Below, piece after piece: positions 1 to 4,435 of a stretch of 5,018 nucleotides of DNA. Below the pieces are notes generated by a model. The model ran no database searches, was not told where the DNA came from, and saw only the letters and a program-made list of their open reading frames with translations. The first letter of the stretch is position 1, and every line of letters begins with the position of its first letter. Position numbers and translations under genes: made by a program. The stretch comes from a virus (taxonomy: Duplodnaviria; Heunggongvirae; Uroviricota; Caudoviricetes). The stretch lies in IMG/VR virus record IMGVR_UViG_641736116_000018. The stretch is one strand, 5' to 3'.

Positions 1-119
1 CTTGAACAGCAGGAAGGTTTTATCGTTGACGGCGTGGCCTGGAAAGTCCGTATTGATGCAGGTGTGGCAGCTCTGGATTATCGCGGTATGGTCAAATCAG
101 GCGGGACAGATTCACTCTG
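1..119 (+). CDS. 3' end of an unidentified protein-coding gene (partial; start lies upstream of the window)
   Basis: Frame 1 is open from position 1 to a TGA at 117-119 (…GFIVDGVAWKVRIDAGVAALDYRGMVKSGGTDSL*) and is followed 6 nt later by an intrinsic terminator. No open frame on the minus strand. The track ORF 2..214 is in another frame and reads through the terminator hairpin. Product not recognised. Confidence 0.3.
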
Positions 120-124
120 ACAAC

Positions 125-375: not shown

Positions 376-657
376 ATGACAGAAGCCGAAATACTGGGAT
401 TAATCCGCCGCGTCGCCGGAATCAGCCAGCAGGTTGACGAACAGGCCACGCAGCCGGACAGCATGACCGCAGATAATTATGTGCGTGTAGTGGTGGAGGT
501 GATGCGCCGTGATGGTATCCAGCTTAATGATGTGGATATGCGCAATATACGAACCAGAGTCCTTGAGTTGCTGGCATACCGTCGCCGTTCTCAACAACGG
601 AGGGAGAGCGCGAAAAATACTTACCAGTGGAAGACGCCGGAACGGCTGCGGAGGTAA
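376..657 (+). CDS. Hypothetical small protein, 93 aa, basic Arg-rich C-terminus, function unknown
   Basis: ATG at 376 preceded by a G-rich stretch (GGGGG 367-371). Balanced charged/hydrophobic composition, unlike the overlapping antisense ORF 400..672. Several rare codons (ATA, AGA, AGG, CGA, GGA). No family recognised from sequence alone. Confidence 0.4.
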   Translation: MTEAEILGLIRRVAGISQQVDEQATQPDSMTADNYVRVVVEVMRRDGIQLNDVDMRNIRTRVLELLAYRRRSQQRRESAKNTYQWKTPERLRR

Positions 658-660
658 CTT

Positions 661-690
661 GTTGATATTCACGATAACGCAAAATTGCGT
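661..690. repeat. Composite repeat copy A: GTTGATATT (661-669) + dyad ACGCAAAATTGCGT (677-690)
   Basis: Exact 9-mer GTTGATATT and exact 10-mer core GCAAAATTGC, both recurring at 919-950 and (9-mer only) 963-971. Confidence 0.5.
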
Positions 691-702
691 TGGCTGGTGG
701 GG

Positions 703-722
703 GAGTTGCAGATCTGCAACTC
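703..722. repeat. Perfect 20-bp palindrome GAGTTGCAGATCTGCAACTC
   Basis: The sequence equals its own reverse complement over 20 bp; lies 46 bp downstream of the 93-aa ORF stop. Confidence 0.6.
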
Positions 723-894
723 GATCATGAAATTACGGAAACTACCCGTAGTTTGGGTAGTAAGAGCAACACCCAGATTTTGGGGCTTACTTGCGATACC
801 CAAATAAAGGGTATCGGTGGAAGAAATATCGTTTCTCATATGTGAGTACCGAGGGCGTAATTCCACCTTCGGTTACTCGCTGAACTTAAAGCAA

Positions 895-910
895 AGCGCA
901 AAATTGCGCT
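895..910. repeat. Dyad AGCGCAAAATTGCGCT (second copy of the GCAAAATTGC core, no adjacent GTTGATATT)
   Basis: Exact 10-mer core GCAAAATTGC at 898-907 with complementary flanks. Confidence 0.5.
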
Positions 911-918
911 GATAACTG

Positions 919-950
919 GTTGATATTGTTACAGAGTGCAAAATTGCACT
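919..950. repeat. Composite repeat copy B: GTTGATATT (919-927) + dyad AGTGCAAAATTGCACT (935-950)
   Basis: Same 9-mer and same 10-mer core as copy A, with the same ~18-19 bp offset between them. Confidence 0.5.
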
Positions 951-962
951 ATGGCCTAACCC

Positions 963-992
963 GTTGATATTTCCGGCAACCTCAATTTGAGG
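963..992. repeat. Composite repeat copy C (diverged): GTTGATATT (963-971) + dyad CCTCAATTTGAGG (980-992)
   Basis: Third exact GTTGATATT followed at the same offset by a different but analogous CAATTTG-centred dyad. Confidence 0.4.
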
Positions 993-1267
993 AGATCGGA
1001 AACATCACCCTTCAAATTCTGAATGGTCATAATGACCACGCAGACCATCAAGGCAACCACAACGAACATCGTTACGGTTGGAGCTTTTACCACACTGGGG
1101 AAAAGGTACGCACCTGAATCATCATTACCGTGATCAAGGGTATGTAAAGCCCACCAGCCTGATTAACGTTTAACCGGAAAAAAATTCCGGTAGGTGGGGA
1201 TCCCCATATCGGGGAACATCCACCAGCTTCATAACGGATAGCCGGAAAATGATAACGGTTAAAGCGT

Positions 1268-1332
1268 GTTGATCTTTGTTCGTGGTTGTTCGATATTGTT
1301 CGTGAAACGGTGTAGTTAATGGTGTAGTTAAT
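1268..1332. repeat. Iteron-like direct repeats: GTTGATCTT / GTTCGATATT variants, TTGTTCGTG x2 (1276-1284, 1296-1304), GGTGTAGTTAAT x2 in perfect tandem (1309-1320, 1321-1332)
   Basis: Seen directly; the 12-bp tandem is exact, and the 9-bp repeat recurs at a 20-bp period. Confidence 0.5.
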
Positions 1333-1403
1333 TTCGCTGTTTTTGACAGGGTTGTTATTTGTAACGCAATGAAAAATAAAGACTAATCAATGAAATGTTA
1401 TAA

Positions 1404-1421
1404 ATGATAGTTATCTATCAT
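1404..1421. promoter_or_regulatory. Perfect inverted repeat ATGATAG-TTAT-CTATCAT about 85 bp upstream of the clpS start; candidate operator
   Basis: 7-bp arms exactly reverse-complementary with a 4-bp spacer, in an AT-rich stretch of the clpS 5' region. Confidence 0.3.
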
Positions 1422-1505
1422 GTGGAGTAGATTGGTCAGGCAAATAAGCTCTTGTCAGCGGCAGGGCGTTCTGCCGATAACCGTAACCGAAGATGATAAC
1501 TGACA

Positions 1506-1826
1506 ATGGGTAAAACGAACGACTGGCTGGACTTTGATCAACTGGCGGAAGAAAAAGTTCGCGACGCGCTAAAACCGCCATCTATGTATAAAGTGATATT
1601 AGTCAATGATGATTACACTCCGATGGAGTTTGTTATTGACGTGTTACAAAAATTCTTTTCTTATGATGTAGAACGTGCAACGCAATTGATGCTCGCTGTT
1701 CACTACCAGGGGAAGGCCATTTGCGGAGTCTTTACCGCCGAGGTTGCAGAAACCAAAGTGGCGATGGTGAACAAGTACGCGAGGGAGAATGAGCATCCAT
1801 TGCTGTGTACGCTAGAAAAAGCCTGA
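1506..1826 (+). CDS. clpS: ClpS, ATP-dependent Clp protease adaptor (N-degron recognition), 106 aa
   Basis: The full-length translation ([51 protein letters not shown]…) matches E. coli ClpS as I recall it. It ends 30 bp before clpA, the conserved clpS-clpA arrangement. Confidence 0.96.
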
Positions 1827-4347: not shown

Positions 4348-4435
4348 GTTCACTGCCGTACAGGCAGCTTAGAAATTCACTGGTAACATACTCCACCCGC
4401 CCACCATGTTCACTGCCGTACAGGCAGATAAAATG
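4348..4435 (+). CRISPR. Orphan type I-F-style CRISPR mini-array: repeat (4348-4375), 32-nt spacer (4376-4407), degenerate terminal repeat (4408-4435)
   Basis: Repeat 1 GTTCACTGCCGTACAGGCAGCTTAGAAA is the canonical 28-nt I-F (Yersinia-subtype) repeat with the Cas6f hairpin GTTCACTGCCGTACAGGCAG and the CTTAGAAA handle. Repeat 2 keeps the first 20 nt and diverges over the last 8. The spacer is exactly 32 nt, the I-F length. No cas gene in the window. Confidence 0.8.

Follow-up and report, generated by a model that had tools for sequence, protein, structure and literature searches.

Direct repeats upstream of clpS as a predicted attR arm of an Escherichia coli phage-inducible chromosomal island

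Gene content of the window

The window (the whole stretch of 5,018 nucleotides analysed here) is E. coli DNA. It opens with the end of a capsid gene and a small ORF; some 850 bp free of ORFs follow, and after them come clpS, clpA, tRNA-Ser and infA. The direct repeats that are the subject of this analysis lie in the ORF-free stretch ahead of clpS. The features that define the locus are collected in Table 1. No relative of the 93-residue product of the small ORF was found among solved structures. An Rfam scan of the whole window at E <= 1 gave no RNA family at or near 1268-1332, which ruled out an RNA element at that place; the only matches at gathering score were a tRNA and one CRISPR repeat.

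Table 1. Coordinates of features in the window
Feature	Position	Strand	Basis or assignment
ClpP-like prohead protease / major capsid protein fusion gene, 3' end	1..120	+	stop codon 118-120; RefSeq annotation of the 99.8%-identical locus L002; Pfam Phage_capsid_4, CLP_protease
Last island ORF, 93 aa, phrog_1561	376..657	+	terminal gene in every island variant examined
TTGTTCG x3 (1276-1282, 1286-1292, 1296-1302)	1276..1302	+	predicted sites of an AlpA-family (TorI/Xis-like) excision factor/activator
GGTGTAGTTAAT x2	1309..1332	+	predicted integrase arm-type sites of attR, equivalent to P1/P2
AT-rich spacer, 71 bp, between arm sites and core	1333..1403	.	28% GC; holds an IHF-like site
att core identity block ATGATAGTTATCTATCA, right boundary of island	1404..1420	.	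comparison of K-12, attL and attR
clpS, host gene downstream of the insertion, outside the element	1506..1826	+	ORF and annotation of related locus

The repeat array

The array has the order GTGTTGATCT TTGTTCGTGG TTGTTCGATA TTGTTCGTGA AAC GGTGTAGTTAAT GGTGTAGTTAAT TTCGC. It combines two kinds of repeat. The heptamer TTGTTCG recurs three times with an exact period of 10 bp, for which Tandem Repeats Finder gives 3.0 copies of a 10-nt unit over 1276-1305. A degenerate fourth heptamer, GTGTTGA at 1266-1272, stands in register with these three. Six bp beyond the heptamer array begins the 12-mer pair, two abutting copies at 1309-1320 and 1321-1332 (12-nt unit, 2.0 copies), and the AT-rich spacer follows on its 3' side.

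In 1000 dinucleotide-preserving shuffles of the window, neither a perfect tandem duplication of 12 nt nor a heptamer in three copies with a 10-nt period arose even once. When up to 2 mismatches were allowed, GGTGTAGTTAAT was found 3 times in the window against 0.2 expected. The repeat pattern at 1276-1332 is real and beyond chance.

The original prediction had described a 12-mer twice in perfect tandem, a neighboring AT-rich stretch and a distance to clpS of about 170-240 bp. The sequence and Tandem Repeats Finder agree with the first, the base composition of the spacer with the second, and the repeats do lie 174-238 bp upstream of the clpS ATG. It had also described a second motif repeated twice with a 20-bp period. 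The two copies of TTGTTCGTG at 1276 and 1296 are present as described, but the middle copy, TTGTTCGAT at 1286, had been missed, and the period is therefore 10 bp and not 20 bp.

The island and its insertion site

Homology of the window to K-12 MG1655 starts only at about position 1400, and the yljB-clpS spacer of K-12 is uninterrupted. In L002, the corresponding locus of the O145:H28 strain RM12581, an island of 11,125 bp, bounded by two copies of ATGATAGTTAT, separates yljB from clpS. It carries genes for a tyrosine integrase, an AlpA-family helix-turn-helix (HTH) protein, an Icd-like protein, a D5/P4-type primase and the ClpP-like protease/major-capsid fusion, together with an SSB pseudogene and the 93-residue ORF. 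By its sequence, the element to the left of about 1400 is a Gram-negative phage-inducible chromosomal island (PICI).

PICIs at cspD-clpS with the att site ATGATAGTTAT are entered in Table S1 of Fillol-Salom et al. 2018 (PMC6092414). This published site corresponds to window 1404-1414, the first 11 bp of the core block. Because attB and attR have C at position 1415 where attL has T, the crossover is placed within 1404-1414. The core is 86 bp from the clpS ATG, and the repeats are 72-128 bp inside the right end of the island.

Of 5426 complete E. coli genomes, 367 contain the attR arm together with the junction (window 1262-1440), and the others match the host part only. Wherever the repeats occur upstream of clpS the island is there as well, and about 93% of the complete genomes lack them. 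A search of genome contigs for relatives of the integrase outside the species yielded one useful locus, from Shigella flexneri. It is of the same type as the O157:H7 island at roxA-phoQ described below and added nothing new.

The att core (window 1404-1420) extends over the stop codon of yljB (2241-2315 in the K-12 locus, L001) and the codons just before it. Integration regenerates an intact yljB 3' end in attL, as tRNA-targeting islands regenerate their tRNA. The RM12581-type island carries, between int and alpA, an extra ORF of 257 aa (L002 9685-10458) that has no Pfam or PHROG match and is missing from the sister islands; it may be an accessory or defence gene.

Repeats at both ends of the island

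The attL of L002 holds the same two kinds of repeat. It reads from the core ATGATAGTTATTTATCA through GTTA GTGTTCGTGG GTGTTCGTCA, 55 bp of AT-rich DNA, CTTGTTCGCC CTTGTTCGTCA CAGTTCGCC CTTGTACGATG, CAC GGTGTAGTCAAT GGTGTAGTTAAT and a further 26 bp to the int ATG. In other words, the core is followed by GTGTTCG twice, a 55-bp AT-rich spacer, four TTGTTCG-like heptamers, GGTGTAGTYAAT twice and the start of int, with two heptamers near the core and four further on. All repeat copies at both ends of the island are on the + strand and in the same orientation.

These motifs are confined to few places. Within 37.5 kb, GGTGTAG occurs 4 times, as two GGTGTAGTYAAT pairs, one at each island end. GTTCG pairs 10 bp apart occur in the same 37.5 kb only in attL, in attR and upstream of alpA. 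When the two ends are joined as attP, each arm consists of three or four heptamers and then two 12-mers. On one arm the unit stops 71 bp short of the core. On the other arm, counted from the start of the core, the unit starts after about 95 bp and its 12-mers after 137 bp.

Two island proteins have domains that suit such sites. The integrase has a Pfam Arm-DNA-bind_3 domain (residues 8-95, E 2e-16) in addition to Phage_integrase. The HTH protein matches Phage_AlpA (E 3e-16) and falls in a PHROG family named "excisionase and transcriptional regulator". At 1385-1397, in the spacer that separates the 12-mers from the core, one IHF-like site departs from the consensus at a single position, and the count of IHF sites across the window is not clearly greater than chance. 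The equivalent spacer in two paralogous islands (L009 and L014, below) has a perfect IHF consensus, and the spacer length in paralogous islands is 71-74 bp.

Exchange of replicase, integrase and AlpA between islands

Natural variants of the island show with which genes the repeats change. Five further copies at the same site (L003-L006 and L010) have integrases that are 91-98% identical, and their replicases are of three types: two primases, 47% identical to each other, and a RepA-family helicase with about 20% identity to either. The positions of the heptamer and 12-mer motifs are identical across these copies despite the three replicase types. Within the repeat block only the linker positions 1283 and 1307 vary, both in L010, and the spacer beside the block is more variable. 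Across seven island copies, 0 of 45 motif positions within 1222-1403 vary versus 21 of 137 other positions (one-sided Fisher p = 0.0017, which is only indicative since the copies are related).

The opposite exchange is found in strain UTME-3, where a sister island at tRNA-Pro (L007) matches the window at 99.8% identity as far as position 1094. L007 and L004 have replicases that are 99% identical, and the integrase and AlpA of L007 have 23% and 26-30% identity, respectively, to the window type. The repeats of L007 keep the layout seen in the window but differ in sequence: they are TTTAGTTATACG as a perfect tandem pair on each arm, placed in attR at 63 bp from the core, and heptamers of the form CACCGRA at a 10-bp period, beside the core and further along attL. 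Because replacement of the replicase leaves the repeats in place and replacement of the integrase/AlpA module changes them, the repeats follow the module and not the replicase.

A third set of islands uncouples integrase from AlpA. It consists of L009 (roxA-phoQ, O157:H7), L011 (abgR-smrA) and L014, which is EcCICFT073. Their integrases are 75-77% identical to the window type (76-79% over the N-terminal 100 residues) and their AlpA proteins only about 50%. All three keep GGTGTAGTYAAT twice, exactly, on both arms, at 71-74 bp from cores that differ. The heptamer is altered to TTGT[TG][TC]C. Taken with the more distant integrases, the 12-mer is kept at 75-77% integrase identity and is different at 23% (L007) and about 20% (KplE1, below).

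Assignment of the binding proteins

In all three AlpA types the intergenic region between int and alpA, upstream of alpA, carries a phased pair or array of the heptamer specific to that type. In L003-L006 and L010 it is CGAAC-N5-CGAAC, in L007 it is CACCGGA-N3-CACCGGA, 30 bp before alpA, and in L009, L011 and CFT073 it is formed by arrays of GGAACAA/GACACAA. Three AlpA types thus pair with three heptamer types. Outside the att arms and the int-alpA region, phased heptamer pairs are essentially absent from the 28-37-kb loci, with a single exception in L009. No 12-mer was found between int and alpA in any of the three AlpA types, EcCICFT073 included. In the RM12581-type variant (L002) the GTTCG pair upstream of alpA lies inside a terminator-like hairpin.

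Genetic data are available for EcCICFT073, where AlpA activates its own promoter and its overexpression gives rise to excised circular island DNA (PMC6092414). In the same study AlpA was without effect on Pint; it was described as an activator of the island cycle and contrasted with the P4 excision protein Vis.

The co-variation, the heptamers upstream of alpA and the Arm-DNA-bind_3 domain together point to the N-terminal domain of the integrase as the likely binder of the 12-mers and to AlpA as that of the heptamers. The best assignment, which we infer from the co-variation among the three module types and from analogy to KplE1, has the 12-mers as integrase arm-type sites and the heptamers as AlpA sites. 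The segment 1276-1332 would then be the int-distal arm, attR, of an integrated E. coli PICI with predicted docking sites for integrase and AlpA, a reading that we consider likely from the sequence comparisons. The Icd-like protein was also considered as the binder of the heptamers and was ruled out; the same RefSeq accession is present in L002 and L007 and yet their heptamers differ.

The main competing assignment is the reverse one, in which the heptamers are the arm-type sites of the integrase and the 12-mer pair is bound by AlpA. Both motifs flank the core on both arms and position alone cannot assign the binder, and the arm-type sites P'1-P'3 of lambda, which are tandem repeats at close spacing, offer a precedent for closely set sites like the heptamers. 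Yet the 12-mer is identical where AlpA is only about 50% identical, and it is the heptamer that changes there; EcCICFT073 AlpA activates its own promoter, PalpA, from an int-alpA region that holds heptamer arrays and no 12-mer; and the TorI sites of KplE1, which are experimentally defined, have a GTTCG core too. The reverse assignment is on these grounds unlikely.

With the 12-mers assigned to integrase and the heptamers to AlpA, a mechanism can be proposed. The integrase would hold the 12-mers with its N-terminal arm-binding domain and the core with its catalytic domain, bridging the two across the AT-rich spacer, which would be bent, probably around IHF. Once a helper phage has induced the island, newly made AlpA would assemble head-to-tail along the phased heptamers beside the arm sites, on both arms, and the resulting polymer could shape or favor the excisive intasome. 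The heptamer operator at PalpA would at the same time provide positive feedback and tie induction of the island to excision. AlpA, the master activator of Gram-negative PICIs, would then also be an excision factor, and a single operator motif would serve it at the alpA promoter and on the two att arms. We regard the chances for and against this dual role as about even. The arrangement suggests that AlpA couples island induction to excision.

Effects on clpS and on replication

The original prediction had offered three roles for the repeats: regulation of clpS-clpA, perhaps through phased sites of the response-regulator type; replicon iterons; or membership in an inserted element. The last of these held, as the repeats are inside an 11.1-kb PICI without counterpart in K-12 and in most other complete genomes. 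Regulation of clpS-clpA was not borne out in the conservation check, since most orthologous loci lack the repeats. In spirit the idea of phased sites for proteins survives, but the likely binders are the island integrase and an AlpA-family protein and not a host response regulator.

It is conceivable that the arrays at 1276-1332, when bound by AlpA and integrase, also gate transcription into clpS-clpA, either through read-through or through an array-dependent promoter. The island is transcribed toward clpS. If such gating occurred, induction of the PICI by a helper phage would alter proteolysis by host ClpAP/ClpS. We consider it very unlikely. Promoter consensus scans gave no match on the + strand of 640-1520 and none in attL of L002, and in K-12 the only match was on the minus strand, presumably on the cspD side. 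A mapped transcription start for clpS or clpA was not found in a literature search.

Control of clpS-clpA by a host transcription factor, for example a response regulator, acting at the repeats is still less probable. The repeats are phased, direct and on the clpS strand at a suitable distance upstream, and an island inserted so near the clpS ATG may have some effect on clpS expression. But K-12 and the great majority of complete E. coli genomes are without the repeats, no sigma-70-like promoter was found on the + strand of 640-1520, and the repeats also adjoin phoQ, smrA and the int end, always with this integrase family and whatever the host neighbor.

The iterons of P4 ori/crr are TGTTCACC. 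Like them and like plasmid iterons, the island repeats are short, direct, helically phased and set beside AT-rich DNA, and TGTTC is common to the heptamer and the P4 iterons; the proposal that they are iterons of an island origin, bound by the primase/helicase initiator, is nevertheless rejected as the least credible of all, because the repeats track the integrase/AlpA module and do not co-vary with the replicase (the block is the same with three unrelated replicases, and in L007 a 99%-identical primase with another integrase goes with different repeats), no perfect DnaA box is near them, and they are divided between the two island ends, where they flank the att core.

The repeats at 1268-1332 are in this way removed as a lead for clpS regulation or for a hidden replicon; they would form the attR arm in a phage satellite of a known class. 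They offer a concrete map, open to experimental test, of recombination sites for the most common integrase family of E. coli PICIs, to which the model island EcCICFT073 belongs. The map comprises the 12-mer as integrase arm-type site and type-specific heptamers common to the att arms and the alpA promoter.

Comparison with known recombination modules

The closest parallel is the module of the KplE1/HK620/Sf6 type. In KplE1 (CPS-53), mutagenesis and binding studies defined five TorI sites in attL with the core GTTCG/GATCG/GTCCG (Panis et al., PMC2951348, PMC3509656). Two of them are beside the att core and three form a second block, and the arm-type sites of IntS overlap the intS promoter, just before the intS ATG (PMC2951348). 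In the K-12 sequence the TorI sites of the second block start 10 bp apart, and attR of KplE1 contains a tandem pair, GGGTAAAATAGC GGGTAAAATATT, with a 12-bp period, 55 bp from the core. TorI and the island AlpA are 31% identical (E 3e-5).

The likeness extends over the whole module. IntS also has an Arm-DNA-bind_3 domain, the integrase gene is transcribed from within attL, and the excision factor is a small winged-helix protein. The order in attL is in both cases core, two excision-factor sites, a 10-bp-phased block with GTTCG core and arm-type sites before the int ATG, and attR has in both a tandem arm-type pair with a 12-bp period, 55-74 bp from the core.

There are also clear differences. 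The island integrase is only about 20-21% identical to IntS, and the 12-mer is GGTGTAGTTAAT here versus a GGGTAAAAT-type sequence in KplE1. The island core is at the 3' end of yljB, whereas that of KplE1 is in a tRNA gene. The island has three extra heptamers in attR, abutting the arm-type pair, whereas TorI sites of KplE1 are reported only in attL (PMC2951348, PMC3509656). The island attL lacks inverted arm-type copies. Finally, binding was measured in KplE1 and is predicted here.

The island resembles the Gram-negative PICIs at cspD-clpS, EcCIIHE3034 and EcCI18098 (PMC6092414), in its integration site, in the core ATGATAGTTAT and in the gene order int, alpA, Icd-like, primase and capsid genes. 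Like EcCICFT073, it carries the same 12-mer pair on each arm, and phased heptamers are found in both islands on the two arms and between int and alpA. The two differ in that EcCICFT073 has capsid and decoration genes where the window's island has a protease-capsid fusion.

The attP arms of lambda (P1, P2 and P'1-P'3, with the Xis sites X1, X1.5 and X2 and with IHF) are alike in that a heterobivalent integrase bridges arm and core. In lambda, the excision factor binds head-to-tail beside an arm-type site, and AT-rich spacers between arm and core are bent by IHF. The island integrase is of another subfamily, with a P4/IntS-like N-terminal domain. Sites of the excision-factor type are on both arms of the island but only on the P arm of lambda, and the island int is transcribed across attL, whereas that of lambda is transcribed away from attP.

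The island family, the integration site and the core are already published, and the kind of module is known from KplE1 and lambda. A reading of these repeats as integrase arm-type and AlpA sites was not found in the papers searched; a term search of the main text and two supplementary files of PMC6092414 found neither arm-type nor AlpA sites described. For EcCIDI14 and the yejM-luxR islands, Table S1 of that paper gives the tandem pairs "CGGTGTAGTTAATGGTGTAGTTAATT" and "TTTGTAGTTATACGTTTGTAGTTATACGG" themselves as the att site. In L007 it is the 3' end of tRNA-Pro (CTCGTGC...ACCA) that is repeated at the junctions, and the pairs of 12-mers (5963-5986 and 16139-16162) are 63-144 bp inside the island; in L014 the tandem 12-mer pairs are at 585-608 and 11804-11827. 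As judged from these positions, the two entries are probably arm-type repeats and not crossover cores.

Other features of the window

Just 3' of the capsid gene, the non-coding stretch 144-343 resembles unannotated DNA of lambdoid phages, Stx-converting ones among them (VT1-Sakai, Stx2a phages), at 82-85% identity. A further match lies near the right end of the linear phage mEp460 record, and a second copy of the stretch, about 73% identical, is upstream of the capsid gene in sister islands. The stretch is probably an island copy of the packaging (cos) region of a helper phage. A supposed resemblance to the lambda cosN 12-mer was dropped, that 12-mer being absent within 3 mismatches near 160-200. 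EcCICFT073 has been reported to have two cos sites (PMC6092414).

The long ORF-free tail of the island contains further repeats. The sequence TAACNNGTTGATATT, a perfect IHF consensus, occurs three times on the minus strand, at 655-667, 913-925 and 957-969. Each copy is 10-25 bp from a copy of GCAAAATTGC (at 679, 898 and 938), so that the set spans window 655-971. The tail has no phage match and is mosaic among island variants. The same non-coding tail also has a perfect 20-bp palindrome, GAGTTGCAGATCTGCAACTC, at 703-722.

On the host side, between clpA and tRNA-Ser, two type I-F-like CRISPR repeats with one spacer are found at 4348-4435 (Rfam CRISPR-DR4, 50.1 and 29.7 bits). They look like a small array, and the window has no cas genes. 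RefSeq annotates an "RtT sRNA" in L002 (22481-22616) just before tRNA-Ser, roughly where the CRISPR repeats fall.
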